From: Candidatus Omnitrophota bacterium
Lineage (GTDB): Bacteria > Omnitrophota > Gorgyraeia > Gorgyraeales > Gorgyraeaceae
Length of the DNA: 64,000 bases
NCBI GenBank assembly: GCA_003485765.1
Contig: DNHS01000051.1
Span: 71,747 to 135,746, forward strand
Reading direction: 5' to 3'
Shown here: positions 38,779 through 64,000 of the stretch, in pieces
Position numbering within the stretch: the first letter of the stretch is position 1
Layout: the number at the start of each line of letters is the position of its first letter
Translations under genes and position numbers: made by a program
Notes under the pieces: model-generated
Seen by the model: only the letters and a program-made list of their open reading frames with translations
What the model was told of the DNA's origin: nothing
The model's database searches: none

Positions 38779-38838
38779 CTCTCACCTCTATATATTGTTT
38801 TTATTTTGATTTCCGCGTAGTTCCGCCTGACTAAAAAC

Positions 38839-39929: not shown

Positions 39930-41308
39930 GATTTTTTCTTGTAATGTTTTTTAAGATCTTCTTCGCGTATCCTGACAAGTTCTTCTGCCGGGAGAATTGA
40001 TACTACATCCCACCCCAGATCCAGCCCGTCTTCCAGGGTCCTGCGCTCCATGGGCCCCTGACTCAAGAATTTTTTCTCAAAATCTTCTCCGAATTTTAGG
40101 TATAACTTGTCGAGGTTTGAAAGCTCTTCTTCTCCTATGATTGACGCGAGCGCCCTGACATCTTTCACGTGAGCGTAACACGCGAATAACTGTGAAGCCA
40201 AAGACGGGTGATCGTCTCTAGTCAGGCCTTTTCCTATATTATCTTTCATGAGCCTTGATAGAGACGGAAGCCCTGCTATAGGAGGATATATCCCTCTATT
40301 GTACATCTCTCTCTCGAGAACGATCTGGCCTTCAGTAATGTAACCCGTAAGGTCAGGTATAGGATGCGTGATATCATCGTTAGGCATTGTCAAAATAGGG
40401 ATCTGCGTTATAGAGCCTTTGATTCCTTTTATCATGCCTGCTCTCTCGTATATGCTCGCTAAATCGCTATAAAGATATCCTGGGTAGCCTTTTCTCGCTG
40501 GTATCTCGCCTCTTATCGTGGAAACCTCTCTCAATGCCTCGCAATAATTCGACATGTCTGTCATGATCACAAGGACGTGCATGTTTTTCTTAAACGCCAG
40601 GTATTCAGCGCAGGTCAATGCCAATCTGGGGGTTAAAAGCCTTTCTGTTGACGGACTGTCAGCCAGGCTCAGAAATATCGCGACCCTTTCAAGGACTCCT
40701 GATTCTTCGAAACTCTTTTGGAAAAATCTTGCCGTATCGTATTTAACGCCCATGGCCACGAAGATGACGCAAAAACTTTCTCCCTTGACCTGCGACTGGC
40801 GCGCAATCTGCGTGCCAAGAAGATCGTGCGGCAGGCCGCTTCCTGAGAATATCGGAAGTTTCTGTCCTCTCACGAGCGTATTCATGACGTCTATTGAAGA
40901 AATGCCTGTCTCTATAATATTTTCCGGATAATTTCTTGAAACAGGGTTTATCGCCAGACCGTTCACGTTTACCATTTCATCATACACAGGCTTTGGCATG
41001 CCGTCCAGAGGATTGCCAAGCCCGTCAAAAACCCTGCCCAGAACTTCTTCAGATACTCCTATTAAAAGAGGTTTTTCTTTAAAATTCACCCTGCAATTTT
41101 TTATAGCCAGGCCGCTTGTGCCTCCCAGGACTTCCACGACCGCGAAACCTTTGCCGACCTCAAGCGTAATCCCGAGTCTGGACTTTCCTTCGTCATCGAC
41201 TATCTCCACAATCTCGTTATATCCTACGTTATGGATATTGCGTATGATAAAAATAGGCCCTGTTATTTCTTCTAATCCGACATATTCTCTTAAATTGTAC
41301 TCTTTCAT
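39926..41308 (-). CDS. ntpB: V-type ATP synthase subunit B (operon 2)
   Basis: 460 aa; B-subunit pattern [12 protein letters not shown]...[18 protein letters not shown]. Confidence 0.85.
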
Positions 41309-43072
41309 TTAGAACTCCAATTCTCCGAGCAAGCGCTCTACTTCAGAAGGAAGCTCTGTCATTTTAGCGAGATCCTCTTCTGATTCTGAATATTTAAACC
41401 TCATCCTTATAAGCTCCTGATAAATCTGGTGTTCCTTTATCTCGGCTATGTTTATGCCTTTTTTAATAAGCTCATCGCTTTTTTCGTAAAACTTAACTAT
41501 GGATTTCAACATCAGAAATTGTTTGCGGCTCGAGGAATACGCGTCGATATTATCAAAAGCGCTCTGCTGCAAAAATGTATTCTTGAACATGGCGCACGTC
41601 TCAAGTATCAGCCTCTGCCTGTGGGGCAATATGTCAGGTCCTACAAGTTTGACAACTTGAAGAAGCCTTTGCTCTTTCTGTAAAAGCTCCATTATGGCGT
41701 ATCTCATAGAAAGCCAGTCTTTATCTATATTCTTATGCCACCAGTTTTTCACGTCGTCCAGATACTCTGAATAGCTGTCTATCCAGCTTATAGAAGGGTA
41801 ATGCCTTGCATTCGCGAGGTCCCTGTCGAGCGCCCAGAAACAGCGTATAAATCTCTTTGTGTGAGATGTAACAGGCTCTGAAAAATCTCCGCCTGGAGGA
41901 GAAACAGAAGCGATAATCGTGATAGAGCTGTTTTCATTATTAAGGGTCTTGAATTTGCCTGCCCTTTCATAGAATTCAGCGAGCCTTGAAGGAAGATACG
42001 CTGGAAATCCTTCCTCTAAAGGCATCTCTTCCAGCCTGCCTGAAAGTTCTCTCAAGGCCTCTGCCCATCTTGAAGTAGAGTCTGCCATCAATGCAACATT
42101 ATAACCCATATCGCGGTAATATTCTGCGAGCGTAATACCCGTATAGATGCTGGCTTCTCTTGCCGCAACAGGCATGTTGGACGTATTTGCTATGAATATG
42201 GTCCTTTCCATGATAGGCCTTTTGGTTAGAGGGTCTATAAGTTTAGGGAAATTAAGAAGGATGTCTGTCATTTCATTCCCTCTTTCCCCGCAGCCTACGT
42301 ATATGACTATATCCGCATTGCTCCATTTGGCAATCTGATGCTGGACAACTGTTTTGCCTGTGCCGAATCCTCCCGGCACGACAACGCATCCGCCCTTCGC
42401 AACAGGAAACAGCGTATCAATAACTCTCTGGCCGGTAATAAGAGGCTCATCTACAGGAACCCTTTCTTTGTAAGGCCTGGGGCGTCTAACAGGCCACTTT
42501 TGATACATGAAAATCTCTTTTTCAGAATCCTTTTCTATTAATACCGCGATTTTTTCTTCTAAAGAATATTCGCCTCCACTGGCAATCCATTTAATCTTTC
42601 CATGGGCATCCGGCGGAACTAAAATCTTGTGTTTTATCAAATGGGTTTCCTGAACTGCTCCTATAACTTCTCCTCGCTTTATATAATCGCCTTCTTTTTT
42701 CAAAGGCGCGAAATGCCATTTCTTTTTCCTATCCAGGGCGGTGACGTGAACGCCTCTATTGATATAAAAGCCTTCTTTTTCTTTTAATATTTCAAGCGGG
42801 CGTTGTATTCCGTCGTAGATATTTCCCAATAGCCCGGGCCCTAATTCAACGTACAAAGGAAATCCCTGCGTATAAATAAGGTCCCCTGCTTTAAGTGATG
42901 TAGTGTCTTCGTAAACCTGGATATACGCCTTGTCGTTTTTTAATCTTACAACCTCTCCGACAAGATGTTCCTGGCCTACCTCCACCATGTCCAGCATCCT
43001 TAAGAAAATAACCTCTTCCGCTTCAACAACAGGCCCCGTCACTCTATATACTTTGCCCGCAGTCTTTAACAT
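41309..43072 (-). CDS. ntpA: V-type ATP synthase subunit A (operon 2, catalytic)
   Basis: P-loop [13 protein letters not shown]; 587 aa. Confidence 0.9.
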
Positions 43073-43075
43073 CTT

Positions 43076-43693
43076 CTAGAACGCTCCCTTCAATAAATCC
43101 ATGTATATATCATCATACAGCCTTTTAAACCTGGCAGAAAACGTATTATCGTAAATAAGCCTGGAATCCTTTGATTGCATGATTACGCCTATATCCTTAA
43201 AATCGCATCTTTTAAATTGAAGCGCAATGCCTTTTATATTTTTTATAAAATCATCTTTTATGATCTCTTCATCCAGGCCTGAATATAAAACTTCAACTTC
43301 TCCCTCGCCTATAACCTTAATGCCTTCCGATATGGCTTTTTCCAGAAACGCTTTATAGCCCTGGTCTTTTCTGAATTCCGCGGCTATCTCTCTTACCTTT
43401 TCAAGCGCTGTTTCTATGAATCTGCTTTTTTCTTCCAGAAAAAGTTTTTTCTTTTCAAGATTCAAGGTAGAAAATATTTTCTGTTTCATCTTCTCTATTT
43501 CAATATCATTTTTTTTAAGAACTTCTTTCTTTTTATTTTCCGCCTCATGGTTCGCTTCTTCCAGGATTTTGGATTTTTCTTTTCTGGCGCTTGTAAGTAT
43601 ATAATCAGCTTGAGCAGTAGCGTCTTCTATTATCTTTCTGCAGATTTCTCCCGCATCTTCTATCTTTGCCTTTGAATAAAGAGATTTGTCCAT
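43076..43693 (-). CDS. ntpE: V-type ATP synthase subunit E (operon 2)
   Basis: 205 aa; charged helical N-terminus; operon position. Confidence 0.65.
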   Translation of the reverse strand: MDKSLYSKAKIEDAGEICRKIIEDATAQADYILTSARKEKSKILEEANHEAENKKKEVLKKNDIEIEKMKQKIFSTLNLEKKKLFLEEKSRFIETALEKVREIAAEFRKDQGYKAFLEKAISEGIKVIGEGEVEVLYSGLDEEIIKDDFIKNIKGIALQFKRCDFKDIGVIMQSKDSRLIYDNTFSARFKRLYDDIYMDLLKGAF

Positions 43694-43995
43694 CAGACGC
43701 TCACTCCTATTATATCCTTCAGATAATCGCCAACGCTTCTCCTATTAGCAGATCCTCCCCTTGAGGGAAGTTCGAGTATGAGAGGCAACTGATTCTTATA
43801 CATAAGATTATCCAGTTCCTGCCTTAAAAATGACACTGCCTTTTCAGTCACCAGAATCACCCCTGCTTCTTCTGTTGCCAGCGCTACTTTTAAGGCCTCT
43901 AGAGCGTCGGAGCGGCTGGAAACTTCTCTAGTCTCTACCCCCGCCAGTCTGAAACCAAGGCCTGATTCCTTATCAGCTATGCAGAAAAACGTCAT
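43693..43995 (-). CDS. ntpF: V-type ATP synthase subunit F
   Basis: 100 aa; MTFFCIADKESGLGFRLAGVETREV...GVILVTEKA is a typical F-subunit pattern. Confidence 0.75.
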   Translation of the reverse strand: MTFFCIADKESGLGFRLAGVETREVSSRSDALEALKVALATEEAGVILVTEKAVSFLRQELDNLMYKNQLPLILELPSRGGSANRRSVGDYLKDIIGVSV

Positions 43996-44324
43996 TAAAT
44001 TTTCCCCAATATCATTATAGCAATAATCAAGCCGTATATCGCAATACCTTCCGCAAGCCCTACGTATATCAGCGCTTTTCCTGCCATCTCCGGTTTCTCG
44101 CTTATCGCGCCTACTGCCGCTGCTCCTACGTGCGCCACCGCAATACCTGCCGCAATCGCGCTAAGGCCGGTTGCGAGCGATGCTGATAAAAATGCCCATC
44201 CGACTATTGCCGGATCAGTTGCAGCCTGCTGCGCCTGCGCCCAAGCAGAGCCGCAAAAAGAGATAAATAGAAAAAATATACAAAGCTTTACAACGCGCCA
44301 CGACCATTTTACAATACGCTCCAT
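43995..44324 (-). CDS. ntpK: V/A-type ATP synthase proteolipid subunit K (single-hairpin c subunit with an N-terminal hydrophobic extension)
   Basis: AIAAGIAVAHVGAAAVGAISEKPE...GLAEGIAIYGLIIAIMIL is a 2-TM hairpin with the conserved carboxylate (E). GTG start at 44330 or ATG at 44324. Confidence 0.7.
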   Translation of the reverse strand: MERIVKWSWRVVKLCIFFLFISFCGSAWAQAQQAATDPAIVGWAFLSASLATGLSAIAAGIAVAHVGAAAVGAISEKPEMAGKALIYVGLAEGIAIYGLIIAIMILGKI

Positions 44325-44339
44325 ACCCACCTCTCTTTC

Positions 44340-46241
44340 TTATATCTTTACTGGTTTATAGGTTTCCTTGCCCGCCATGAAAAACTTTGAGAAAAACTCG
44401 TAATAATTCAGCCTCAAAGACTGTATGGTCACCACAAGGCCTTCTAGAAAAATTATAAGTATATTTCCTAAAATAACAACTAAAAAAGATAGAAACGCGC
44501 CGCCCGAGTGGTTCACTATCTTGGAAAGTTCGAATATAGAGATAAACAGGCCTGCGTGAGCCAGCGCGAAAGCCGCTATGCGTATAAAAGATACTGTGTT
44601 GGCCAGATAGCTCATTCCCACTTCAAGAATATCTACGGAGCTCTCCATAAGCGATACGAAAATTCCATGTTTTTCTTTCTTTAAAAAAGCCTCTATGAAG
44701 GGCTTTAAAAAAAGCAGGGTAAAACCTGCTGATATTACAATAAAATACGCGTTCAAGCCCTGGGTTTTAGCCATAGATATTTTAGTAAAAAGCCCTATGG
44801 CTGCCCAGTAAATTACGCCGCCTATAAGCCCTGCCTTATCAAATATGGCCTTCATATAATCCTTGTCCCGCATGGCGTTTATTATATTTATCAATATGCC
44901 TATTGTCATAAATACGATCCCGAATACCACGCTTATTTTAAATACCTGCATAATATTCTCTATGGGCTTAATCCATAAAGAATGAACCTCTATGCCAAAA
45001 AAACTCCCGTATAAAAATCCGAATATAGCGGAGCTTGCGCCGCAATAAAGCATAAGGCTTGAGGCCTGTTTCGCCTTTTCGTTTTTGCTAATATTTAAAA
45101 ATATGCCTGCCAGCGCCAGCGCTATTCCATGCCCTATGTCTCCGAACATGGCGCCAAACATCACAAGAAAGCTTATTGCAACGAATATTGTAGGGTCAAT
45201 TGTTCCATACCGCGGTATGCCGTAAGAATATGTCAATAATGCAAACGGCTTGAAAAATGCGTTATGCTTAAGTTTCACTGGTATCTCTTCCTTTGGTATG
45301 TTTACTTCTTCCGCATCTTTTGATTCAATGTAGCATCTTTTGTCTATCTTTTTTATCTCTCTTATGACGCTTTCTTTTTCCTCCTTTGGAACCCAGCCTG
45401 AAAAAAGCACTGTTTTATCTGTCATGCACGAATATTTTTTTGCCTCTAATAAAGATTTTTTAAGCCTGACGAGCGAATGTATATTCGATAAATCACTCTG
45501 ATAAGCCTCTCCTATTTTTTTTACCCCGAGTTTTGCATCCAGCGCCTTCTTTTTTATAGCCTCTATCTCCTGGGACAATTTCTCTTCCACATCCTTTGAA
45601 ATATTTTCTGTGTGTTTTGGCAACTCCATCTTTTCCCAGGATATATCTTTTAAAACCCTGTCTATAAAAACCCTGTCGCGCCTGATGCCTATAAATAAAG
45701 CGGTAACCTTATCGCCTTCTTTCTTAAAAGGATAAAATATATAAGGGATATCCTTTAAGCTTCTTTCCATGACTGAAATATTTTTCTCAACCACCTTCCC
45801 TATCGTTACCTCTAAAAAGCTGTACACTGATTCTCTTTTTAAAGAAAAGAGCGGATAGGATTTCAACTGCGAGAATATAGAATTTTTGGTCTCGAGCTCT
45901 GAATCCAATTCCTCTTTCTGGGTAAGGAAAGGGCTTATGTTTTCCTCTACATTTGTAAGGATGTTTTTGATATCGTCGTAAGAAAATGCCTTTATGTCCT
46001 TGGAAACTATAGGAGAAATGCCAAGTTTCCTTAAATTATCCCTCAATCTTGTGTCCAGCTCATCCCATTGGGCGCATTCTTTGTCTATCTCATAAGGGGA
46101 CAGTTCTTTTAATTCATCCTCTATGTGGCGTATGTCAACAGGATGAAATATCCCCAGTTTTAAAAGATGATAGGTTATATCCTCTATCTTTTCTTTTAAA
46201 ACAACTATGCTCAATAATTCCATACTCGATGTTGTCAGCAT
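44340..46241 (-). CDS. ntpI: V-type ATP synthase subunit I (operon 2); alternative start at 46223 (MELLSIV)
   Basis: 633 aa; soluble N-terminal half plus a C-terminal membrane domain with a conserved Arg (LRLNYYEF). Confidence 0.8.
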   Translation of the reverse strand: MLTTSSMELLSIVVLKEKIEDITYHLLKLGIFHPVDIRHIEDELKELSPYEIDKECAQWDELDTRLRDNLRKLGISPIVSKDIKAFSYDDIKNILTNVEENISPFLTQKEELDSELETKNSIFSQLKSYPLFSLKRESVYSFLEVTIGKVVEKNISVMERSLKDIPYIFYPFKKEGDKVTALFIGIRRDRVFIDRVLKDISWEKMELPKHTENISKDVEEKLSQEIEAIKKKALDAKLGVKKIGEAYQSDLSNIHSLVRLKKSLLEAKKYSCMTDKTVLFSGWVPKEEKESVIREIKKIDKRCYIESKDAEEVNIPKEEIPVKLKHNAFFKPFALLTYSYGIPRYGTIDPTIFVAISFLVMFGAMFGDIGHGIALALAGIFLNISKNEKAKQASSLMLYCGASSAIFGFLYGSFFGIEVHSLWIKPIENIMQVFKISVVFGIVFMTIGILINIINAMRDKDYMKAIFDKAGLIGGVIYWAAIGLFTKISMAKTQGLNAYFIVISAGFTLLFLKPFIEAFLKKEKHGIFVSLMESSVDILEVGMSYLANTVSFIRIAAFALAHAGLFISIFELSKIVNHSGGAFLSFLVVILGNILIIFLEGLVVTIQSLRLNYYEFFSKFFMAGKETYKPVKI

Positions 46242-47281
46242 ATATTCAATAGCGAACTTAACTCTTCTTTTTTAAAACCCAGATTCTTGGCGTATAATAC
46301 AGATACTATATTCTTTGACTCATTTCTTTTTAGCACAACATATCCAAGTATGACCCCTATTGTAAAAGGGTATCCTGAAAGCGTTCTTTTAACTTCTTTT
46401 AACAAAACCTCATGAAGGAAATTTTCTATAAGGGGCATGTTTTCTTCTATAAGTTCTCTAATTTTGGCGTACGGGCCAAGCGCTACGCTATCCACAATCT
46501 TTGTAAGCCCGTCGGTCGTATAAAGACTCGCGACGTTCTCTCTATTAATCCTCGCTCCGCCAGGAATCACCCATTCCAGAATATCGCCGGCTGCCAGGCT
46601 GTAATATTTCCTCATCCTTATGAGCCAGTTTATGTTTTCGGCATCTATCTCTATGCCTATGACCCTTTTGGCTATCTCCTGATCGCGGGGAGAAAGCGAT
46701 TCCACGCAGGAAAGAATCCTCTGGTAATAATCCATGTCCAGGCTCGCTTCCAGGTAAAATGTAGAACCTCTTTCTTTGAATTTATCCCTGGCATTTAAAA
46801 TAGGCTTTCTATAAGGAGTATCTTCTAAAAGAATGATTATCTCTTCTATGTTAGGGGCATATATAACCTTTTTATAGTCTATGTTAAAACTTATCTTCCC
46901 GTCTAAAAGAAAATCATTGGTGTTAACCGGTGTTTTTTTATTCCATATCCTCAACGCCGTCTTTAACTGTTCAAGTTCGTACTTTTCTATAAAAAGACTC
47001 ATGAGTTCTTTTTCTGTTTTTCCCGAAGCGGCTCTATATATTTTTCTGTATATATCCAAGTCATTTTTTATGAACCTCTTTTCGATAATCCTGAGATCCG
47101 TGATTTCCTTAGGGATGCTTTCTATTGCGTCTTTATGATATGGCGATTCCTTTAATAGCTCCAAGGCATTATAAACATCTTCCGCCTCCAGCATCCTGGA
47201 AAATAAATCCGGGCTTATCAGAAATGACATCATGGCTCTTATCTTGGCGTTAATAAAAGAATATGTGGAAAGCTCTCGCAT
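46235..47281 (-). CDS. ntpC: V-type ATP synthase subunit C (d subunit)
   Basis: 348 aa all-helical; MRELSTYSFINAKIRAMMSFLIS is a typical C/d-subunit N-terminus. Confidence 0.75.
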   Translation of the reverse strand: MRELSTYSFINAKIRAMMSFLISPDLFSRMLEAEDVYNALELLKESPYHKDAIESIPKEITDLRIIEKRFIKNDLDIYRKIYRAASGKTEKELMSLFIEKYELEQLKTALRIWNKKTPVNTNDFLLDGKISFNIDYKKVIYAPNIEEIIILLEDTPYRKPILNARDKFKERGSTFYLEASLDMDYYQRILSCVESLSPRDQEIAKRVIGIEIDAENINWLIRMRKYYSLAAGDILEWVIPGGARINRENVASLYTTDGLTKIVDSVALGPYAKIRELIEENMPLIENFLHEVLLKEVKRTLSGYPFTIGVILGYVVLKRNESKNIVSVLYAKNLGFKKEELSSLLNIC

Positions 47282-47283
47282 AT

Positions 47284-47601
47284 CTAATCTTTAATTGTTA
47301 TTATCTGAGAGAAAACCTTTTTGGAAACCTCAGAGATGTCCTTGTCTTTTCTCTCTTTAATGGCAAGGGTTTCTTTTCTGACTTCTTTAAGGACATTTTC
47401 TTTTTCAGACATAAATCTTTTTTCTGATTCTTGCTTTTCTTTATAGCTGAAAGCTTCTGCTTCTACGGCTGTCCTGTTTATTATATTCTCTTTCTCTTTT
47501 TTAGCGTCTCTTACGATGCGTTCCGCTTCTTCTTTTGCGTCCTGAAGTATCTTACTGGCTCTTTTCTCTTCCTTTAAAATCTTTTCAACCACATCTTTCA
47601 T
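47284..47601 (-). CDS. V-type ATP synthase subunit G/H (small charged coiled-coil stalk subunit)
   Basis: 105 aa, Lys/Glu-rich coiled coil, first gene of operon 2. Confidence 0.6.
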   Translation of the reverse strand: MKDVVEKILKEEKRASKILQDAKEEAERIVRDAKKEKENIINRTAVEAEAFSYKEKQESEKRFMSEKENVLKEVRKETLAIKERKDKDISEVSKKVFSQIITIKD

Positions 47602-50812: not shown

Positions 50813-52045
50813 CTAAAATAGGTCTAACTGTTTCTCGCCAACATTATCTTTTTCTTTTAATATCTCTATTGTGCCATACTCTCCATCAAAACCTGGCAAT
50901 ATATTCACATTTCCGTTTCTCACATTTATAATTGCCTTTGCAATTTTTATTGGCAGCTCCCTTAAAAGTTTATCCTCATTAACCTCTGTAAGAACTTCGA
51001 GTTCTGTCCCAAGCCGCGGGATTATTGCGCGATATTCTGCATTAACCGCTTTAGAAGCAACTCCAACTCCTACTGTGTCTGCAATTATTTCTGCAAGCGG
51101 TATCATTCTTTTAAAAGGAATGCTATTCTCAGGGACAAAACCAGCAGATCTGTCTGCAAGCTCACTAACCCTATTCATAACGCCTATTGTAAGAGATTTT
51201 CCGCACGCAGGGCATATATTTTTATTTTTCCTGGTTTCTTCCGGGCTAAATCTTACATTGCAGGCCCTGTGGCCATCGTAATGATATTTCCCTTCTTCAG
51301 GGAAAAATTCAATTGTATAAAGAAATTTATTTTTGTCTTTTTTCTTCAATGTATCTATAACCGCTTTATAGCTCATTTCAATATCAAATACATTCGCCTC
51401 TCTACCTATCTTCTGCGGGCTGTGAGAATCGGAATTTGATATAAGATTAAACCTGTCCAGCTTGCTCCATTGCCAATTCATGCCCGGGTCTGAAGAAAGC
51501 CCTGTTTCCAGGGCATATATATCTTTAGTGTATTCTCCGAAACATTCCTCTATTGAATCAAAACCTGACTTGGAGCCGAAAAGCGAAAACCACGGTGTCC
51601 AGATATGGCCTGGCACTAGAAATATATCTTTACTGATGCCGAATAAAAGTTCTGCCAAATCCTTGGCGTCTATACCTATAATAGGCCTTCCGTCGTACGC
51701 AATATTCCCATAACCTGAAAGAACAGAGTTTACTTTATCAGCAATATCGAAACTCGGCGCAAAAATAACATTATGGATCTTTCTGACCCTGCCATTTTTA
51801 GAATATATGCTGGATATCTCTCCTGTGAGCATAAAATTCACGCTGTTATATTCAAACAAACCATTGCCTGAATCCTTTAATGTGGTTTTTAATTCTTCCA
51901 GCCATAGATAGTGCGTAAAATCTCCTGTGCCCAATAAAGATACACCCTTAAGCTTTGCGTATTCCGAAAGCGTTTTTATATTCATGTCAGGGCTTGTGGC
52001 GCGGCTATATTTAGAATGTATATGGAAATCAGCTGCAAACTTCAT
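50813..52045 (-). CDS. PHP-domain protein resembling endonuclease Q (EndoQ; TIGR00375-type)
   Basis: MKFAADFHIHSKYSRATSPDM N-terminal PHP His cluster; HIWTPWFS; zinc finger CNVRFSPEETRKNKNICPACGKSL. 410 aa. Assignment from memory of the EndoQ family pattern. Confidence 0.5.
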   Translation of the reverse strand: MKFAADFHIHSKYSRATSPDMNIKTLSEYAKLKGVSLLGTGDFTHYLWLEELKTTLKDSGNGLFEYNSVNFMLTGEISSIYSKNGRVRKIHNVIFAPSFDIADKVNSVLSGYGNIAYDGRPIIGIDAKDLAELLFGISKDIFLVPGHIWTPWFSLFGSKSGFDSIEECFGEYTKDIYALETGLSSDPGMNWQWSKLDRFNLISNSDSHSPQKIGREANVFDIEMSYKAVIDTLKKKDKNKFLYTIEFFPEEGKYHYDGHRACNVRFSPEETRKNKNICPACGKSLTIGVMNRVSELADRSAGFVPENSIPFKRMIPLAEIIADTVGVGVASKAVNAEYRAIIPRLGTELEVLTEVNEDKLLRELPIKIAKAIINVRNGNVNILPGFDGEYGTIEILKEKDNVGEKQLDLF

Positions 52046-55099: not shown

Positions 55100-55378
55100 T
55101 TATGCCTTCGATACTAATTTACCGTTCACATACTTATGCACTATACTTGTAATCAGTGTCTGATATAGAATACCCTCATCTACGGCTTTAGTTTGAATAC
55201 CAATAAAATCCTGCTTGGACATACGGATACTAATCCTCTGATCTTTTTTCAAGGCATTTCTGGCATATTCAGCATATTTTTTGATCTCAGCCGCCATATT
55301 TTTAACTGGTTTCCACTCTCCTCTTTCAATAGATGATGATAACTCTTGTTCTTCTTTATCAAGTTGATAATTGCGCAT
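55100..55378 (-). CDS. brnA: BrnA-type antitoxin (ribbon-helix-helix)
   Basis: LDKEEQELSSSIERGEWKPV...KDQRISIRMSKQDFIGIQTKAVDEGILYQTLITSIVHKYVNG matches the BrnA family pattern. Confidence 0.7.
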   Translation of the reverse strand: MRNYQLDKEEQELSSSIERGEWKPVKNMAAEIKKYAEYARNALKKDQRISIRMSKQDFIGIQTKAVDEGILYQTLITSIVHKYVNGKLVSKA

Positions 55379-55379
55379 C

Positions 55380-55658
55380 TTAATCGCCTCCCTGTCTTAA
55401 ATATTCCTTGGCCAGCTTACGGCTAGGAATAATAGTTTTAAGAAATAAATCATTTCCCGCCTTAACAAATGGAACATAATAAACGTAATTGTTTAACCCC
55501 ACAACAAAGGCCCTCTGGCCCTTGTATTTTTTACTGGGATTTTGGATAATAGCCAATACCTGTTGATTTTCAATACAAACCAATATCTCTTCAAATGAAA
55601 TATCCCGTTCAGTTTTTAACTTTTGATTTTTAGCTGGATCCCAGTAAATGTTTCCCAT
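55380..55658 (-). CDS. brnT: BrnT-type toxin (DUF497, RelE-like fold)
   Basis: MGNIYWDPAKNQKLKTERDISFEE...QRAFVVGLNNYVYYVPFVKAGNDLFLKTIIPSRKLAKEY matches the BrnT pattern (FEWD..K...N..KHG..F). ATG at 55658 preferred over the GTG at 55673. Confidence 0.7.
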   Translation of the reverse strand: MGNIYWDPAKNQKLKTERDISFEEILVCIENQQVLAIIQNPSKKYKGQRAFVVGLNNYVYYVPFVKAGNDLFLKTIIPSRKLAKEYLRQGGD

Positions 55659-55693
55659 AAAATAAGTATACACTATTATGTGCTAAATGTCAA

Positions 55694-55877: not shown

Positions 55878-58800
55878 CTACAAACTGCTTCTAATTGCAG
55901 TACCTATCCCACTATGGCCTGATAATTCTCCAGAAATTAAACCTTTCTCTCTTAATATATAGTCTCTAATAATACCTGATGCCTGGTCATAGACCCTATT
56001 AAAATCTCCTTCTTCTTTTGCAATAGCTCGCGCAACTGCAATTGCATTGACCGCAATAAGAAGGCCTGTTCCATTGTATATTGCGGCGCCATGTTCACTT
56101 GACTTTGTTAAGAAAGCATTTACAGGTTCAGGCCTATAATTTAGATCGACTGCTATAGTGCCTTTTTTCATAGCTGCGTGAAGACTATCTGAGAGAGGCG
56201 ATTCAGATGGATCCTTCTTGCCAACGCCAGTAGTATTAACCACAATATCAGATCTCTCAAGAGTCCTATATAGTAAAGCCTGATCATCAGGTGTAACAGC
56301 ATAGAAATTAATATCAGCATCAGGAAATTTCTGTTTCAAGCGAGCTGCAACTGCTCTTCCTCTTTCTACATCAAGATCTGTAATAGAAATAGAACTAGCT
56401 CCCTGTTCCAACATACTAAAAGCTATTGCGCTTCCAGTTGCGCCAGCCCCTCCTAAAATAGTTACCCTCTTATTTTGTAGTAAACCAACCTCGCTTTCAT
56501 ACCATCTTACCCATGCATTTCCACCTTCATTGCCTCCTAAGATACCACCTTCGCCATCTTTATACACAAAGTCAAAACCAGTTCCTTCTGCTCCACCTGT
56601 TCTTTGAATTTTAGAAAGATGCTCTGCAACTAAATATTTGAATGATTCGCCAGTATCAAAACCTACAAACTTATTACTGGATAAAAACATTGCCATAACC
56701 TCTTTCCAGCCTGCCAAATCATCTCCAGCAACCTCATATGGAAGATACACAATGTTCAATCCAAGCTCCTTAAACACACTGTTGAAAAGCTCATGAGTCG
56801 TAGATCCTCCTGGTTTGCCTATATCTAAGCCTTTTCCAATATGTAACATAAATTTCGTATCTGAGTTAAGGCGATCAGCATAACCAAGCCTACGAGCTGT
56901 GACTACCAAATCCTCTTCAAATGCTCGCACAGTAGTTATTAATGCCTGTTCGCTTTCTTTTTTATTACCAATCGGCACAGTCGCTCCAAGCAAAAGTTCT
57001 CTCTCAGTTACTTTTTCTTTTCCAATCATTGCTTCTTTAGTCATTGCGAGAAGAGCTTCCAAATCGACAATCGAAGCAACCTCTTTTTCAAAATTTACAT
57101 CCTCTAAAACCTTATTAATTGCCTCTGCAACAACGCCTGCCCCCTGAGCAAGGTCTCTAGCTGCAGCCATATTTATATTTATTCCTTGTTCTCCAGCATT
57201 TACCATAAAGGTCATGAGCCCTTTAAGCATATCTCTCAGGAATTCGTTTCCCTCGCTAGCGATCATTTCGTTTAAAACTTCAATAGCGCTAGAAGCATCG
57301 CCATTTCCAAGATTTTTAACTAAATAATCGTATAAAATCTGATACTTCGGAGCTTCGTAAGCGAGCTGTAATTCTGCTAATTTCCTTGCAAACTCTGCAT
57401 CATCTGGATTGGCTTTATATTGCTGCATCAGAAAGGCCAATGGAAGTAGTTTGTTATACTCCCATTCTGTAAAATGCCCATATTCTTTACGCAACAACGC
57501 CTGTAATATTATTTTATATCTTTCATCAGCCGCCATCTTAGGAAGGTTTTCTACTAACAATGGGTGAAGCTCTAATCTTCTCTCCTCAATCTCTCCCTTG
57601 TCATGGTCCAAGCCAAATCTCACTCCTATTACTGGGTCACCAGGTTTGCCTTCTAAGGTCTCACCAGTGTCTATCATTTCCCCCATGCCAGCTAAATCTT
57701 TCTGATCCTTAAGTATCCCCTTAAGATCCTCTTTAAAATCTTGCGCGTTCCTATGTTGTATACCAGGGGATCTCCAGTCCTGATTCGAAGCCTCTTCTCT
57801 TAAAACCCTCTCGTATTCTTTCGCAGTTCGAGAAAGATCTGCTTTGAGATAGTCATTGGCATCTGACTCGCTTATTGTCACATAGCCTGAAAGCTCCGAT
57901 GCGCCGAAACCAATGCCTGTCTCAGTTCCCGGGTAAAAACTAAAAATCTTCCATTTTTCTGTTCTCGGGCAAAGCAATACTCTATGATTGCCATCTGCAT
58001 CAACAACAAAAACACGGTTATAAGGCATGTTTTTACCTACCATGTCTTCTAAATCTATCCTTTCTCGTTCTGAAATCCCGACAATATCCTTGGATGCAAA
58101 TGACCTAGTATTGACAGGCCACCCAGAGAGATAACCTGTTGTCACTGACACAGATGTATCAGATACAGCATCTTCAACAACATTTACACTGCCTCTTTCT
58201 ATATTGCTCCATATAGGAGATCTACCTTTCTTAAATTGCGAGTGGAAATGGTACCTGCTGGCTCCAGACTCTGCGCTATTGTCAAAACCTTCCCATTCTG
58301 GGCCAAGTCTCTCCATGAAAAAATGTGTTGCTTCTAACAAATTAGCATTATTTCCAACCAGGCATTGAGAATAATTCTTTTTACTAACCAGCAAGATATG
58401 ATCTTCTGCATAAGGATTGATATTGGCAATTACATAATATTCCTCTCCGTCCAACTCCACAATAAAAAGTATTTGATGGGAAAGCTTGGTGCATAAAATA
58501 CAATCTTCTGTGCTTTCAGTGCCATGGAGACCTCTTACGTCTTTAGGCGCCTCAGGTAATACTGGTAAATCGCTGCTTACTGCTAAAACTTTTTCTTCTG
58601 CCCTAGCTTTTCTTACATATTCCAATCTAGGAAGTACAGCTATCAATTCTGCGCTGGCGCCATTTGAAAGCTCGAAAGGCGTCCTCTCTATCTTAAGCTC
58701 ATAGTTAATAACTGGCGTGCCATCTATCCATCTGGCATTCTTAACCCTTTCTAAACCTTCTTCGATCTTCTCAGCAAGCGACATGTCATCTCTTAAATTA

Positions 58801-61800
58801 TATCTGTCGATCGGCAGGATAGACTCTATGAGACTGTAAAGAGTGTAATATTCTTCCTCGGGTAGCTTATTATTTACTGCTTGAATATTAGCTGCTTCTC
58901 TTACTGAAAAATAAGACAACTCCTCTGGCAGATTATCTGCCAGGCTAATCAGCGTATCGTGTAAATATGACGATACAGGACCAGAGCCTGCGAAATCAAT
59001 AAATGCCTGCTTAACTACTGTCGGTTTCCCTTTAAAACTTGCTTCCATCTTAATCATTATTTCTTGACGCATTTTTGCTTCTAACTCTATATCCATAAAT
59101 GTATTCCAGTCAATTTCTCTAAGCTCCTGCAAGGTATAGCGCTCTCCAACTGTTTTTGCTACTTTATCTCCTTTGGCCTTACTCTTTGGATCATAACCAA
59201 TAGGCACTTCTATCCGTACATGACCTGAAGGAAAATCCTCATCCTGTAACCCCTCATGGAATACATCTGCTATTATTGCCTCAGTAGCTTTTATTTCTTT
59301 ATCCCAAATAACCTTGTGCACTATGCTTTTTTCTGCCTGTAACTTCATGGCCGTTGTGTCAACAATATAACTGTACTCAGCTTTTATTAATCCTACTGTA
59401 TTATGTACAACACTATTCACAATACTGCTTCCTGGCCAGAGTATTGTGTGGCCACTCACTATAGCATTCTTAATATACACTCCCTCCACTGTAGTGCCTT
59501 CACGGACTTCGTCAGCTGTAAGCACCACCTCGCGCCCTGTTGGCGTCTGGAAACGAACCAATGCGCCTTTTTCTAATCCAAGGCCATGCATCATCCTTAA
59601 TTCTTCTGCTCGCAATTTTTCTGTTAGAACTGCTTTTCTATGGTTAAGCTCTCCTGAACTTTCAACAGTTGCAATCTCTCCACTTAGGTCTGCTAACAGG
59701 TCTAATCGTTCATTCAAAATGTCACGCGCCCCACGGAATGTCACCCATTGCGCGCCCTCTCCTAAGTCAATTGACCCTACCACTGGAGCTCCTTCTTTAG
59801 GAAAGATTCTAGGATTATCCCTATTGAGTAAATAGTACTCTATTACCTCATAGCCAAATTCTCCGAGCTCTCCATCTACAGCCTTTGCCCCAAGTTTCTC
59901 TCTTATATGAAGAGGAAGTTTTGAGCCAAGCTTTATTGCATGCTGTCGTAATATATCTTGTCTATTCTCTTGTGGCAAGTTGCGAAACTCATTCTCTATA
60001 TCTAATCCCTTTAATCCTTCAATTAAAGCTACAAGTGGCTGGACAAAATGTGGGTCAAAGTCGCGTGCTTTGCCTTCCTTTTCAAGATCGCTTCCTTTTT
60101 CTACCTCTTTAAAAACACCTCTCATCTTCCAGTACTCTAATAAACTAAACCACATCTCATTATCTATTGAAAACGACCCAAAGTCATATGCTACTGTGCC
60201 TTCGTGTGATAATAGAGTCTCAAGTTGTGCCAATTTTGCCTTGGCCTCTTCAAGGTTCTTTTCTAATCCTAACTTTACCAAAAGCATTGCAGGGTCTTCT
60301 CCGTCTCTATTCAATACCTTTGGCAATTGGTCAATACGCACATAACGTACATTGTCTCCTATCTTTATAGGTTTGGCAAATCTCTTGTTACCATAAAAGT
60401 CTACAATCGCTCCGTCATTAGTCACTGCTGCTGTTCCAAAGTCGTGTATTTCTTTAGGATTTATATCGCTTCGGTTCATCGCCACAAGGAATTTTGTAAA
60501 TGGCGCATCTGTCCGCTTTAATGCATTGTGTGGAACTGTCCCAGCTATCATTTGGCTTGTCCAGAAAACATCCACCCTTGTGCCTGGATTTGTAGTGGCA
60601 AAATGACTGCTATTAAGCACAACATCATTTATTAATTCTGTATCCATGAGGTCTCCGCTTCGCGTCTTAATGCTCCCAGCCATCTTTTGTCTGCCACGAG
60701 CATTCCCAAGCCCTTGAGTCAGTGGACTGAACCGCGATGCCATCCCAGCATCCGCAAACATACCTATTTTAACTTTACCATCACGCACTTCTGCGCGTAG
60801 TTCTCCAAGACCTCTTCTATCATATAATTGTTCTGCCTGTCGCCACATCTCGCCAACACCAATTACTTGCCCAGCTGTTGTAGCTGTCCCAATCGCAACT
60901 GATAAAACTATGACATCTCTGTCATTTACCGTCTTTACTCCTTTAAAGAGCTGATTAAAGGACCTTTGCTTATATTCTGCTTCATCTTCTGTAGATGAGC
61001 CGATAATATAGACATCATAACCAGCAAATGGTTTGTCAGGATCTAAGAGAGAATGCATTAACTCAATGTTCCTGCGGCGAGTAGCAACTTTCTGGGTAAA
61101 TACGGAGAGTTTTTGTTTGATGGAAAACGCTGTATGGCGGGCAGCTATTTCACGAACAATGAATCCAATGGTATGATACCATAACCAACTAAAGATAGTC
61201 TGTAGTGTCAGTGGAGGCGCATGCGATGGATCTGCTCTCCAATGCGATAGTTCTTCTGCCACAACTGAGATATCTACTGCATACGCTGGGTGAATTATAA
61301 TTTCATTACCACGCCGTACGCCCGCCTGGAATAGGCCTAACTCATCTTTTGATGTTGCTAGCCGAACTTTGTTATTAGAATCATTGCTCCATTCTGTCTT
61401 TAATGCGCTATCTGAATTAAGTACAGCTTGAACTGTCTCTTCTAAAACTTCATCTGCCCCTTCTATCTCTACTACCTTCTTGCGCTTCCATATCTTTGCC
61501 GCCTCTACAATGCCCCACACTATAACTCCAACTCCAAAGCCTAATGTACCAATCCAACCTATATTAAACACTATATCTATTAACATAGGCAACTCTCCTG
61601 CTACTCCCTCTAAATACACCTTCATCCCGACTGCCATGCCTGACAATACTAGCAGTAATGCCCCTAATCGCGCCTGAAATGCTGGTGAATGTGGCTGGAC
61701 AGATGGAGGAGGCGCGGAGGAGGTTGTCCGCATGAACTGGTTGTTTCGTCGCACGCGTAATAGTGTCCATGCGCCAAGCGCCAAGAGTCCTAAACTCACC

Positions 61801-63992
61801 AATAAAATAGCACCCCAGTGAGGCTGAGAGATAAGTTGCGTGGCAGGATAACCAAGTTGTCGATAGCCCTCCATAGCGCTACTCGCGCCGTTATAGAGAT
61901 CATTTGAATACCTTGTTTGTCGATAGGCCTCATATACCAACGTAGAAATGACCAATACTGGAATTAATAAAATCGAATACATAAGAGTAACCTGCTGCCA
62001 AATAAAAAACCACATCTTCTTCAATGCAGGCATACCCGGTTGAACTCCGCGCGAAGTTGTCCTTGCCCAGAATGAATCAAGGCCTCCTAGATGTTGTCGT
62101 AGTGTCAAAATAGCCGAAGGGATCATCGATAGATAGTATAATGGCATAAGAAACGAAAGAAGCAAAAGATGAATACGCATATAGCGCAATGGCCCCACTT
62201 TCGCAATACCAAATAATAACCTGCCTTCACGAACTGTTCTAATTTTATTTTCGATGAATGCCACAAGTGCTTTGTTATCTTTGGCGCGCGCTTTTTTAAG
62301 TTCGTTTTCCAGATTCTTGATTGCCTTCTCAACAAGCGTTTCATCATCAGGATTTGAGCCAATGCGACTGCTGTATATCGCCAGTAATATCACAAAGATA
62401 GACGGAACAAGCAATAGTACAAAACCTGTCATCGTATCTGGGATAAACCAGAATAACTCAGGGATAAGTGTATTTATCAAATCCGTGCCAGGTATTGATA
62501 GCTTTGTGAGAATTGGAGAATAATAAGAAACCCCATACAAAATGGTCGATAAGAAAAAAAAGGTTGTCATGAACGCTGATGGAGTCCCTGAGATGATAGT
62601 GAAAATATGATAGAAATTAAAAACTCCTCCATACTGACTAAGGAGATTTTCTCGATCTTCGAGTTTGAGCTTACCTGTCCTAAAGGCATATTGATAGTAC
62701 ACCCATCCAATGAATCGTCCTACTAATGCTCCGACCACAAATCCAACTACCGCCCCTGCGATACCTAAAGGGATGTATTCACGAGAAGCAAATAAGGCCC
62801 CAAATATTCCCATCCCAATAAATGAACCTATATACATGCCAAAATCAGCAGGATATTTTAGAAGTTTAGCAAACGGTGCCATAGAAATCCATCGCGAACG
62901 CTGATAGACCCACGGGGAGTTCCACGGCGGAGAAATTTCTGGTAATCCGCCCTCATAAGTTTCGCTGGCAAATTCGTCAAACATTTGCACTCTAAGGCCC
63001 CAACGTCGCAGTTTAGAACCTAAATCAGCATCTTCAATTACATCATATTGGTCATGAGAAAACATCGGACGGAGATTATTGAACTGGGACAATACAAGCT
63101 TAGTATTGCGCACGCTATGCTCACTTATGGGTAATTCAGATACTTTTTCTCTAATAGACAAAAGCGCTGTTTGCAATTCTCCTCGTTTAGTGCCTTTTTC
63201 TCGAAAATGTTTTGCAAGAAAGTTGTTAGTGGTTCCATCAATAGGGAATGGAGAATTCTTGTTAATTAAGTGGTTTTCTACAAAATTTGACCTCGGCCTG
63301 AGCATCTGAATTAACCATTGCGCAGTCGCAAATCCAATAGGAGAAGCAATAAAAAATCCAATTATTATCCATACAACGCCCAATGGAGCCATCAACCAAC
63401 CAATAAGCACGCCAAACATTAACCCAAATGGAAAACTTATTTCAGCTCGATGCGAGACTAATCCCCGCTTGATAAGAGACCATGATCTGTAGTCCATAGG
63501 ATAAACAGATGACATTGCATCTGTTCCCTCATAAGGCATCAGAGACAATATACCTTGGAGAATCGCTGGAATACTTTGTGCCTCAAACTCGCTCTGTACG
63601 AAGGTAGCTTCGTCAGGATAGATATCATTAAAACTCTGCCTTATCTGATCTATGCTTGAATTACCACTATAACCTGACAAAAGTTTAGTATAATCGCGAT
63701 ATTGTTCAGCAAGATGGCGCGGAAGATCAAATTGGATCCCTGCGCGAATTGCTTCTTTATACAATTCAGGGTTTTCTTTTCTGATATGGTCTGGCCGTAG
63801 CCGATCATAATCAACAACTCCTGACTCAGTCTGCATATACTGCCATAACATACCTATAAGCTTCATGCGACGCTGAAAAGTAATTGAAACAATCCACGGC
63901 TGTGTAACATTTGGATCGTCCTCTATATCAAAAATTTCATAGATATCAACAACATCATCACCCTTCAAATTATGGTCTGCAAATGCATCCAT
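55878..63992 (-). CDS. Giant multidomain membrane protein (at least 2704 aa; N-terminus may lie beyond the window). ~900-aa polytopic membrane region; nucleotidyltransferase-like plus beta-helix-like region; GalT/HIT-like domain (CILC ... HFHSQ); C-terminal shikimate-dehydrogenase-like domain.
   Basis: C-terminus: STTHELFNSVFKELGLNIVYLPYEV...KRVTILGGAGATGSAIAFSML...IVVNTTGVG...AVDLNYRPEPVNAFL...GAAIYNGTGLLIAVNAIA, collinear with AroE. Mid-protein: IGMFADAGMASRFSPLTQ (NTase-like G-rich loop), hexapeptide-like GALVRFQ...VEGVYIKNAIVSGHTILWPGSSIVNSVV, and EDCILC...RYHFHSQF (CxxC + HxHxQ as in GalT-type HIT enzymes). Many hydrophobic helices in residues ~190-900. No stop upstream in-frame before the window end. 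Confidence 0.7.
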   Translation of the reverse strand: MDAFADHNLKGDDVVDIYEIFDIEDDPNVTQPWIVSITFQRRMKLIGMLWQYMQTESGVVDYDRLRPDHIRKENPELYKEAIRAGIQFDLPRHLAEQYRDYTKLLSGYSGNSSIDQIRQSFNDIYPDEATFVQSEFEAQSIPAILQGILSLMPYEGTDAMSSVYPMDYRSWSLIKRGLVSHRAEISFPFGLMFGVLIGWLMAPLGVVWIIIGFFIASPIGFATAQWLIQMLRPRSNFVENHLINKNSPFPIDGTTNNFLAKHFREKGTKRGELQTALLSIREKVSELPISEHSVRNTKLVLSQFNNLRPMFSHDQYDVIEDADLGSKLRRWGLRVQMFDEFASETYEGGLPEISPPWNSPWVYQRSRWISMAPFAKLLKYPADFGMYIGSFIGMGIFGALFASREYIPLGIAGAVVGFVVGALVGRFIGWVYYQYAFRTGKLKLEDRENLLSQYGGVFNFYHIFTIISGTPSAFMTTFFFLSTILYGVSYYSPILTKLSIPGTDLINTLIPELFWFIPDTMTGFVLLLVPSIFVILLAIYSSRIGSNPDDETLVEKAIKNLENELKKARAKDNKALVAFIENKIRTVREGRLLFGIAKVGPLRYMRIHLLLLSFLMPLYYLSMIPSAILTLRQHLGGLDSFWARTTSRGVQPGMPALKKMWFFIWQQVTLMYSILLIPVLVISTLVYEAYRQTRYSNDLYNGASSAMEGYRQLGYPATQLISQPHWGAILLVSLGLLALGAWTLLRVRRNNQFMRTTSSAPPPSVQPHSPAFQARLGALLLVLSGMAVGMKVYLEGVAGELPMLIDIVFNIGWIGTLGFGVGVIVWGIVEAAKIWKRKKVVEIEGADEVLEETVQAVLNSDSALKTEWSNDSNNKVRLATSKDELGLFQAGVRRGNEIIIHPAYAVDISVVAEELSHWRADPSHAPPLTLQTIFSWLWYHTIGFIVREIAARHTAFSIKQKLSVFTQKVATRRRNIELMHSLLDPDKPFAGYDVYIIGSSTEDEAEYKQRSFNQLFKGVKTVNDRDVIVLSVAIGTATTAGQVIGVGEMWRQAEQLYDRRGLGELRAEVRDGKVKIGMFADAGMASRFSPLTQGLGNARGRQKMAGSIKTRSGDLMDTELINDVVLNSSHFATTNPGTRVDVFWTSQMIAGTVPHNALKRTDAPFTKFLVAMNRSDINPKEIHDFGTAAVTNDGAIVDFYGNKRFAKPIKIGDNVRYVRIDQLPKVLNRDGEDPAMLLVKLGLEKNLEEAKAKLAQLETLLSHEGTVAYDFGSFSIDNEMWFSLLEYWKMRGVFKEVEKGSDLEKEGKARDFDPHFVQPLVALIEGLKGLDIENEFRNLPQENRQDILRQHAIKLGSKLPLHIREKLGAKAVDGELGEFGYEVIEYYLLNRDNPRIFPKEGAPVVGSIDLGEGAQWVTFRGARDILNERLDLLADLSGEIATVESSGELNHRKAVLTEKLRAEELRMMHGLGLEKGALVRFQTPTGREVVLTADEVREGTTVEGVYIKNAIVSGHTILWPGSSIVNSVVHNTVGLIKAEYSYIVDTTAMKLQAEKSIVHKVIWDKEIKATEAIIADVFHEGLQDEDFPSGHVRIEVPIGYDPKSKAKGDKVAKTVGERYTLQELREIDWNTFMDIELEAKMRQEIMIKMEASFKGKPTVVKQAFIDFAGSGPVSSYLHDTLISLADNLPEELSYFSVREAANIQAVNNKLPEEEYYTLYSLIESILPIDRYNLRDDMSLAEKIEEGLERVKNARWIDGTPVINYELKIERTPFELSNGASAELIAVLPRLEYVRKARAEEKVLAVSSDLPVLPEAPKDVRGLHGTESTEDCILCTKLSHQILFIVELDGEEYYVIANINPYAEDHILLVSKKNYSQCLVGNNANLLEATHFFMERLGPEWEGFDNSAESGASRYHFHSQFKKGRSPIWSNIERGSVNVVEDAVSDTSVSVTTGYLSGWPVNTRSFASKDIVGISERERIDLEDMVGKNMPYNRVFVVDADGNHRVLLCPRTEKWKIFSFYPGTETGIGFGASELSGYVTISESDANDYLKADLSRTAKEYERVLREEASNQDWRSPGIQHRNAQDFKEDLKGILKDQKDLAGMGEMIDTGETLEGKPGDPVIGVRFGLDHDKGEIEERRLELHPLLVENLPKMAADERYKIILQALLRKEYGHFTEWEYNKLLPLAFLMQQYKANPDDAEFARKLAELQLAYEAPKYQILYDYLVKNLGNGDASSAIEVLNEMIASEGNEFLRDMLKGLMTFMVNAGEQGININMAAARDLAQGAGVVAEAINKVLEDVNFEKEVASIVDLEALLAMTKEAMIGKEKVTERELLLGATVPIGNKKESEQALITTVRAFEEDLVVTARRLGYADRLNSDTKFMLHIGKGLDIGKPGGSTTHELFNSVFKELGLNIVYLPYEVAGDDLAGWKEVMAMFLSSNKFVGFDTGESFKYLVAEHLSKIQRTGGAEGTGFDFVYKDGEGGILGGNEGGNAWVRWYESEVGLLQNKRVTILGGAGATGSAIAFSMLEQGASSISITDLDVERGRAVAARLKQKFPDADINFYAVTPDDQALLYRTLERSDIVVNTTGVGKKDPSESPLSDSLHAAMKKGTIAVDLNYRPEPVNAFLTKSSEHGAAIYNGTGLLIAVNAIAVARAIAKEEGDFNRVYDQASGIIRDYILREKGLISGELSGHSGIGTAIRSSL

Positions 63993-64000
63993 AGCATTAG

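Follow-up and report, generated by a model that had tools for sequence, protein, structure and literature searches.

RESULTS AND DISCUSSION

A giant open reading frame in an Omnitrophota groundwater genome

The stretch of DNA analyzed here (the window; 64,000 nucleotides, positions 71,747 to 135,746 of contig DNHS01000051.1, GenBank assembly GCA_003485765.1) belongs to a Candidatus Omnitrophota metagenome-assembled genome (MAG) from groundwater, and one end of it is occupied by part of a giant gene on the minus strand. The C-terminal 2,706 codons and the stop codon of this gene lie at 55878..63998 (−); translation places the stop at 55878-55880 and finds no other before the window edge at 63998, where the frame is still open. 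An open reading frame (ORF) caller lists 2,704 amino acids from the first ATG, at 55878..63992 (−), and residues are numbered here from the codon at 63998-63996. In DNA of about 40% GC, 2,706 consecutive sense codons are far beyond chance. From its N-terminal to its C-terminal side, the readable part holds a polytopic membrane region, a nucleotidyltransferase (NTase)-like module (module A), a HIT-like module (module B), and an AroE-fold domain. An earlier interpretation made from the letters of the window alone (hereafter the sequence-only reading) had described a single ORF of at least 8.1 kb, open at the window edge, and had suspected that the protein is larger than the window shows. Both statements are borne out, as the same gene is called at 7,772 amino acids on the 183.6-kb ENA contig k141_1142806. 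There the gene ends at record position 23,320, so a protein of 7,772 residues must start at base 2 of the record, and the gene itself is therefore truncated in that contig as well. The accompanying remark that giant ORFs typify uncultivated lineages agrees with the source, an Omnitrophota MAG.

The same reading had named a chimeric assembly, with stops or frameshifts in the frame, as the circumstance that would undo it. Exact-sequence look-ups of the downstream pyrR, pyrB, and BrnT-like genes led to four public records from several groundwater samples in which the window sequence recurs at 99.8-100% identity (ENA ERZ27254745; Logan SRR6482978; ENA ERZ909595, from SRR1658466; and ENA ERZ28564412, from ANAN16), two of them spanning all junctions within the window and two the HIT-to-AroE part. 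The longest stretch of the giant gene that was read (L006) runs for 3,260 consecutive codons without a stop. In a related lineage, L013 (JGI Ga0180009_10002032), which is 83-90% identical to the window gene at the nucleotide level, the homologous ORF is open for at least 4,402 codons. The block-wise ratio of nonsynonymous to synonymous substitution rates (dN/dS) between the two genes is 0.33-0.63 in linkers as well as in domains, which amounts to purifying selection, although fairly relaxed. A chimeric or frameshifted assembly is contradicted by the four records and by the unbroken frame of L013, and with dN/dS below 1 it was rejected. An internal start suggested by a 968-amino-acid call in one scaffold (L009) was likewise rejected: the first 95 nt of this scaffold (ANAN16-1 scaffold_60610, positions 1-95) do not match the gene and yield the false call, while the remainder is 100% identical to the long ORF, and the mismatching stretch is probably a chimeric scaffold end.

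Module A has the fold of a sugar-1-phosphate nucleotidyltransferase

The modules of this protein escaped most routine searches. A word-indexed homologue search with the whole protein, a method too insensitive for this family, gave no matches; scans of GTDB species representatives with residues 985-2184 and with the AroE part found no relatives; and single-sequence Pfam searches over the window's giant protein gave weak Rossmann/AroE matches only. An exhaustive HMMER search with residues 985-2184 against 1.84 billion representatives returned 142 proteins, about 70 of which share a segment of ~690 amino acids. This is module A (residues 956-1655; 59034..61133, −), which often sits at positions ~870-1600 of proteins of 2,400-4,000 amino acids, which has its closest match in a protein also named Omnitrophica (P0001), and which a profile search also found as stand-alone proteins of ~750 amino acids without Pfam annotation. 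The window sequence of module A has no Pfam match at E<=1 and no NCBIfam match, and its distant relatives score only 0.007-0.02 against NTP_transferase (PF00483).

Structure prediction was more informative. The AlphaFold2 model of module A, built on a 48-sequence alignment, reached a predicted local distance difference test score (pLDDT) of 87.4 and a predicted template modeling score of 0.89, and Foldseek matched it, each time with a probability of ~1.0, to ADP-glucose pyrophosphorylase, to the GDP-fucose pyrophosphorylase part of FKP, and to eIF2B epsilon/gamma. The modeled chain comprises an FKP/ADP-glucose pyrophosphorylase-like NTase alpha/beta fold with a helical insert, followed by a left-handed beta-helix, so that the NTase-like loop and the hexapeptide or beta-helix repeats noted earlier from the sequence are confirmed at the level of the fold. 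The loop itself, FADAGMASRFSPLT, occupies residues 1081-1094 (its last 12 residues at 60717-60752) and is followed downstream by RQK. Across the ~70 relatives, a phosphate loop of the form h-H-[ND]-[GA]-G-x-[GA]-x-R-x-[SA]-P...[QK] is kept; most have GGKGER, and the variant of the window (DAGxAxR) is shared with other copies in giant proteins. Compared with the GDP-fucose pyrophosphorylase of FKP (9iis/9iit) and with GlgC (5l6s), module A is only ~12% identical, longer (700 amino acids versus ~430-550, with a helical insert of ~150 amino acids and flanking helices), devoid of a Pfam NTP_transferase or Fucokinase match, different in its loop (AGMASR rather than GGxGxR), and embedded in a giant membrane protein.

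The company that module A keeps points to its likely role. In all 15 relatives of ~2,400-4,000 amino acids that were scanned, a PGM/PMM domain is present, together with PMI in 2 of the 15 and with PGK or transaldolase in single ones. In the three for which positions were read (P0005, P0011, and P0030; ~3,000-4,000 amino acids), PGM/PMM starts ~15-160 residues after module A, and P0030 also carries a phosphofructokinase domain. A distant member of the NTase superfamily (P0138) is fused to an inorganic pyrophosphatase. The succession of PMI, PMM, and an NTase is the classical route to GDP-mannose. Because of this PGM/PMM/PMI context, and because the nearest structure is a GDP-sugar pyrophosphorylase, we favor a predicted role of module A as a nucleoside diphosphate (NDP)-hexose pyrophosphorylase, possibly acting on a GDP-hexose; a GDP-hexose or mannose theme is our best guess at its substrate.

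Two observations on module A relatives stand apart from this assignment. The proteins P0005-P0029 (alignment A5) form a coherent family of ~2,400-4,000 amino acids with a strongly conserved N-terminal domain of ~530 amino acids, an HEExH motif, module A, PGM/PMM, and in some cases PMI, PGK, or transaldolase; outside PGM/PMM they are Pfam-dark. Stand-alone module A proteins of ~750 amino acids, without Pfam matches, were located at three loci (L011, 10001-12253; L015, 7001-9034; L014, 7001-9256), across which no conserved gene neighborhood was seen. Two of these proteins lie in large genomes with Legionella_OMP neighbors, one of them also with an F-box neighbor, which suggests intracellular, Legionellales-like bacteria as the source of these two.

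Profile homology places module B in the GalT/Apa2/GDPGP1 branch of the HIT superfamily

Downstream of module A and separated from it by a linker that includes an N-terminal extension of module B (residues 1656-1739; 58782..59033, −), residues ~1740-2080 (57759..58781, −) form module B, which recurs in ~50 representatives, including stand-alone proteins of 250-350 amino acids. It carries an H-phi-H-phi-Q motif, HFHSQ (H1917-F-H1919-S-Q1921, at 58236-58250), and in an alignment of 23 sequences the second histidine, His1919, is the one invariant residue, with Gln1878 nearly invariant. Taken alone, the window sequence gives no significant match (E 0.08 to DUF4922 and 0.13 to a HIT protein). The 23-sequence profile, searched against the PDB, recovers the yeast Ap4A phosphorylase Apa2 (4i5t) at 2.6e-7 and FHIT at 1e-4; 6 of the 23 members match DUF4922 (best 2e-23) and 2 match Ap4A_phos_N; and a clear DUF4922 protein (P0240, 7.8e-61) matches the module B profile at 1.8e-15, which links both families. 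Through transitive homology at the profile level, module B can thus be placed in the GalT/Apa2/GDPGP1 (DUF4922) branch of the HIT superfamily.

The sequence-only reading had spoken of a GalT/HIT-like module with an HxHxQ motif and a CxxC zinc knuckle. The motif and the HIT homology hold, the latter through the family profile and not through the single sequence. The CxxC (C1833-ILC, i.e., C1833-x-x-C1836, the sole CxxC in the window protein) is present in only a subset of the family. DUF4922 is the domain of GDPGP1/mcp-1, a GDP-D-glucose phosphorylase that corresponds in animals to the VTC2 of plants (PMC7041677), and according to that article's citation of Adler et al. 2011, GDPGP1 has been proposed to police the NDP-sugar pool. 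With GDPGP1/VTC2 and Apa2, module B shares the H-phi-H-phi-Q motif with its invariant second histidine, and its length of ~300 amino acids is compatible with a two-lobed enzyme; it differs from them in being fused downstream of an NTase and in carrying the CxxC.

The AroE-fold C-terminus has a non-canonical site

Module B is followed by a spacer without a family match (residues 2081-2377; 56868..57758, −; helix-rich by eye), and the protein ends in an AroE-fold domain (residues 2378-2706; 55881..56867, −) with a substrate subdomain and a Rossmann subdomain. The NCBIfam shikimate-dehydrogenase models match it at 1e-20 over positions 24-268 of 290, its matches in the PDB include AroE from M. jannaschii (1nvt, 1.7e-12) and 5-ketofructose reductase (1.6e-11), among others, and the Rossmann motif GGAGATGSA begins at residue 2516. 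The earlier claim of a complete AroE-like dehydrogenase is therefore correct for the fold, which covers both subdomains, and fails for catalytic completeness. In E. coli AroE numbering, the catalytic dyad is K65/D102, and N59 and T61 are substrate residues. The catalytic lysine aligns with K2454 (GESFK, residues 2450-2454) wherever an alignment extends over the substrate subdomain (four cases). In contrast, of five PDB alignments, four pair the catalytic aspartate of the NTD motif with a glycine in GGNEGG (from residue 2488); the fifth template, 3tnl, has ITD at this position and so lacks the NTD motif itself. The equivalents of N59 and T61 differ as well.

The scores tell the same story. At 74 bits, the best NCBIfam score falls far short of its cut-off of 248 and of all other NCBIfam cut-offs (221-432 or more), and Pfam Shikimate_DH gives 17.9 against a cut-off of 24.3. 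With the aspartate replaced and the scores below the cut-offs, a true shikimate dehydrogenase was rejected; the domain is an NAD(P)-binding AroE fold with a non-canonical site, and it probably acts on something other than shikimate. Relative to AroE/YdiB and to the sugar-acting 5-ketofructose reductase (7cok), the domain shares the complete two-subdomain architecture, the GxGxxG, and the aligned lysine; it differs in that the aspartate is replaced (NTD to NEG) and several substrate-binding residues are changed, and it forms the C-terminus of a giant protein, from which it is missing in L013. In view of the replaced aspartate, the score, and the absence of the domain from L013, a cyclitol or shikimate role finds no support. 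The GC content at third codon positions (GC3) of the AroE segment is 0.25, versus 0.33-0.38 elsewhere in the gene.

A close relative shows cassette-like variability

Comparison with L013 locates the variable parts of the gene. The two genes are homologous at the nucleotide level up to about residue 969 and again from about 1658 to about 2345, which means that the spacer after module B is conserved to ~2345. In place of module A, L013 has an intervening stretch of 517 amino acids without significant similarity to it (BLASTP E 0.54; no match to the module A hidden Markov model), and this stretch matches another, shorter NTase-like subfamily (P0134, 5.5e-13) whose members have weak NTP_transferase matches. 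By these matches, the NTase slot was refilled by a remote paralogue, with the order NTase then module B kept, an order that is also found in P0003. The L013 protein ends 25 residues past the limit of homology, without the AroE domain. Cassette-like variability is thus seen for modules A and AroE. Module B is 94% identical to that of L013 at the protein level with a synonymous divergence (dS) of 0.07, versus 0.27-0.36 in the flanks, and this drop suggests recent exchange or recombination between the lineages. As for whether the full fusion is conserved in related genomes, which the sequence-only reading had proposed to examine, L013 keeps the continuous frame and the NTase-module B succession, but module A is swapped and AroE is absent.

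At 13330-15522 of L013, the giant gene is followed by a gene for a 376-amino-acid protein of unknown function and then by a GH130 beta-1,4-mannooligosaccharide phosphorylase. Enzymes of the GH130 family make mannose-1-phosphate, which fits the sugar-1-phosphate theme.

The membrane region and the predicted topology

The N-terminal part of the window protein comprises a soluble segment ahead of the first helix in the window (residues 1-184; 63447..63998, −), which continues upstream of the window, where further transmembrane (TM)-like stretches are seen in L006; a polytopic membrane region with ~10 hydrophobic helices and large loops (residues 185-835; 61494..63446, −), with helices called by a hydropathy scan only; and a linker (residues 836-955; 61134..61493, −) that is conserved in L013 at ~83% amino acid identity. 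The TM region is homologous to the TM regions of P0003 and P0039. The earlier description of a polytopic region of ~900 amino acids is right as to the membrane region and overstated as to its extent, which is 650 amino acids interrupted by large loops and not a solid 900; taking the four earlier domain guesses together, three hold and the fourth does so in part. Directly after the last hydrophobic helix lies KIWKRKK, and from this KRKK cluster and the positive-inside rule we infer that the C-terminal train of enzyme-like modules is cytoplasmic.

A predicted membrane-tethered set of NDP-sugar enzymes

Taken together, the locus probably encodes a single giant inner-membrane protein with a cytoplasmic C-terminal train in which module A is an NDP-hexose pyrophosphorylase, module B a phosphorylase or transferase of NDP-sugars of the HIT type, and the AroE-fold NAD(P) domain an accessory part. 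The readable ORF would make up at most the last third of this protein, and a train of ~1,870 amino acids would hang in the cytoplasm after the last TM helix. Module A would convert a nucleoside triphosphate (NTP) and a sugar-1-phosphate to an NDP-sugar and pyrophosphate. In module B, His1919 would act as the nucleophile that moves the nucleoside mono- or diphosphate moiety of an NDP-sugar onto phosphate or onto another sugar-1-phosphate, by which the module might edit or interconvert the NDP-sugar pool. The spacer and the AroE-fold NAD(P)-binding domain with its non-canonical active site would complete the train. What the modules catalyze and on which substrates, on which side of the membrane they lie, and how they are functionally coupled there is what we infer in this scheme, and the earlier suggestion of a membrane-anchored machine that would build a nucleotide-activated sugar is a reasonable one.

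Several points weigh against this scheme. A pyrophosphorylase and a phosphorylase acting on the same NDP-sugar would make a futile cycle. Neither module A nor module B has a single-sequence Pfam match, the AlphaFold2 model of module B reached a pLDDT of just 34 (from an alignment of only three sequences), and the window loop, A-G-M-A-S-R-F...Q-K, departs from the GGxGxR consensus. An NTase fold with a beta-helix also occurs in the non-catalytic eIF2B gamma/epsilon, which are among the structural matches of module A. The AroE-fold domain has glycine in place of the catalytic aspartate and is dispensable in the nearest relative, and dN/dS is fairly relaxed. Neither the 3,260 readable amino acids nor the 4,402 of L013 contained a SecA-DEAD or glycosyltransferase domain. 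Finally, an extracellular location has been predicted for such sugar enzymes in some giants, according to West-Roberts 2023 (bioRxiv 10.1101/2023.11.21.568195).

Part of this evidence would also fit a scaffold or pseudo-enzyme, in which the AroE-fold domain, and perhaps module A too, is catalytically dead and would bind nucleotides or sugar nucleotides, regulate, or play a structural part in the giant membrane protein, in the manner of eIF2B gamma/epsilon. The replaced aspartate and the changed N59/T61 equivalents, an AroE score of ~30% of the NCBIfam cut-off, AGMASR where most relatives have GGKGER, the eIF2B subunits among the top structural matches, the dN/dS of 0.33-0.63, and the loss of the AroE domain in L013 are all consistent with it. 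We nevertheless regard it as unlikely, while giving it more weight than any other alternative. The arginine of the NTase loop and the lysine downstream, His1919 and Gln1921 of the HIT module, and the lysine and GxGxxG of the AroE fold are all kept. Module A lies upstream of PGM/PMM in the giants with positions read, a distant NTase relative is fused to a pyrophosphatase, and these associations make sense only for an active pathway enzyme. The NTase slot, where it was replaced in L013, was refilled with another NTase.

A second view takes the giants as recombination-driven "enzyme arrays" in which catalytic cassettes are swapped at conserved linker helices between close strains, the string of NTase, HIT, and AroE fold being an undescribed membrane-tethered NDP-sugar pathway whose AroE fold would use a Lys/Glu site on a sugar or NDP-sugar instead of shikimate. 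It is prompted by the replacement of a 690-amino-acid NTase cassette by a remote paralogue and by the gain or loss of an AroE-fold cassette between lineages with 83-90% nucleotide identity. As a whole, we hold this more ambitious version to be doubtful, and less probable than the scaffold.

The same protein could, third, be exported and/or cleaved as a polyprotein into enzymes that act extracellularly on glycans of prey or host, a role that has been proposed for Archaeovorin-type giants. West-Roberts 2023 reports a predicted extracellular location of sugar-phosphate enzymes, as well as C39 and S8 peptidase domains that might cleave giants, and L013 has its GH130 mannoside phosphorylase two genes downstream. 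However, chemistry with NTP, NDP-sugars, and NAD(P) needs cytoplasmic cofactors, the KRKK cluster lies behind the last TM helix, the readable part showed neither a peptidase nor a signal peptide, and the authors of that preprint call their own topology predictions unreliable. Export or cleavage thus seems very improbable.

Least credible, to the point of being negligible, is an artefact, i.e., a chimeric assembly or run-on of adjacent genes for a membrane protein, an NTase, a HIT protein, and AroE, through error or recent pseudogenization: stand-alone genes do exist for the ~750-amino-acid module A and the 250-350-amino-acid module B, the AroE part has its GC3 of 0.25 and is missing in L013, and the gene is known from metagenome assemblies only, but the near-identical records through the junctions, the unbroken frames of L006 and L013, and dN/dS below 1 in linkers and domains all speak against it, as do dozens of other proteins of 2,000-7,600 amino acids that hold the same modules internally.

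Relation to described Omnitrophota giants

Omnitrophota giant genes with numerous TM regions and with unannotated segments that need structure prediction were described by West-Roberts et al. 2023 (bioRxiv 10.1101/2023.11.21.568195), whose giants include PGM/PMM and glycolytic enzyme domains. Nielsen & Lui 2026 (bioRxiv 10.64898/2026.06.07.730766) report 916 long Omnitrophota proteins, 94% of which carry TM helices or a signal peptide; a module of co-occurring "sugar metabolism" domains (starch synthase, GT1, PGM/PMM, and ROK); a class of "multi-enzyme metabolic clusters" with HIT and F420-oxidoreductase; and a sequence space in which 80% of clusters are singletons. The Omnitrophota or Archaeovorin-type giants share with the window protein the phylum, the many TM helices, the very long single ORF, the tiled divergent enzyme domains, the sugar-metabolism theme, the Pfam-dark stretches, and the uniqueness of sequence. 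In the window protein, ~10 hydrophobic segments, with more upstream in L006 (by hydropathy scan only), stand in one frame with several divergent enzyme domains (the NTase with its left-handed beta-helix, HIT, and the AroE fold). It differs from the catalogued giants in that it is documented at 7,772+ amino acids, from a truncated call, which is below the size floors of the two preprints (>= 10 thousand amino acids in Nielsen & Lui; > 30 thousand for the "giants" of West-Roberts). Of the Archaeovorin markers, SecA-DEAD, HEAT, and GT5/GT1 had no Pfam match in the window's 2,706 amino acids or in L013's 4,402, and no dockerin was seen in the readable part of the window protein.

The sequence-only reading knew of no characterized protein with this architecture and took it for something undescribed. 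The exact string of an FKP-like NTase, a DUF4922-like HIT module, and an AroE fold was not found in the available text of West-Roberts 2023 or Nielsen & Lui 2026, but the class to which the protein belongs, the "multi-enzyme metabolic" class, has already been described there, so that what is new is this domain string and how module A is annotated, and no new kind of system is revealed. Their interest lies in the fact that Omnitrophota giant genes make up a large, mostly unannotated, and mostly "Pfam-dark" part of the protein universe. The modeled fold offers a likely role, that of an NDP-hexose pyrophosphorylase, for a recurrent dark module of ~700 amino acids that also occurs on its own, and this assignment would supply a step that is lacking from the sugar-metabolism modules described in giants. 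The comparison with L013, in turn, is a concrete case, among close relatives, of cassettes being replaced and being gained or lost, and has a bearing on the evolution of giant genes.

Genomic neighborhood

The genes flanking the giant gene comprise a BrnT-like toxin pair, a pyrimidine operon, and two V/A-type ATPase operons. Directly downstream of the giant gene, at 55100-55673, lies a gene for a BrnT-like ribonuclease toxin (Pfam E 1.8e-7, under the gathering score) with a partner of 92 amino acids; in L013, other genes take the place of both the pair and the pyr operon. Between pyrC and pyrK, at 50813-52045, is a gene for a protein of 410 amino acids that a public index lists under PF27218 (MJ0043_C), without a match in our own Pfam scan. 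A stretch at 12796-18000 has a GC content of 0.30 versus ~0.39 and contains ORFs of 557 and 380 amino acids without Pfam matches, and it may be foreign DNA. At 27346-28440, this bacterial genome encodes a deoxyhypusine synthase homologue (Pfam DS, 1e-88). At 31800-47300 (−), two complete-looking V/A-type ATPase operons stand back to back, each with A, B, D, E, and I subunits, and a universal stress protein gene lies between them.

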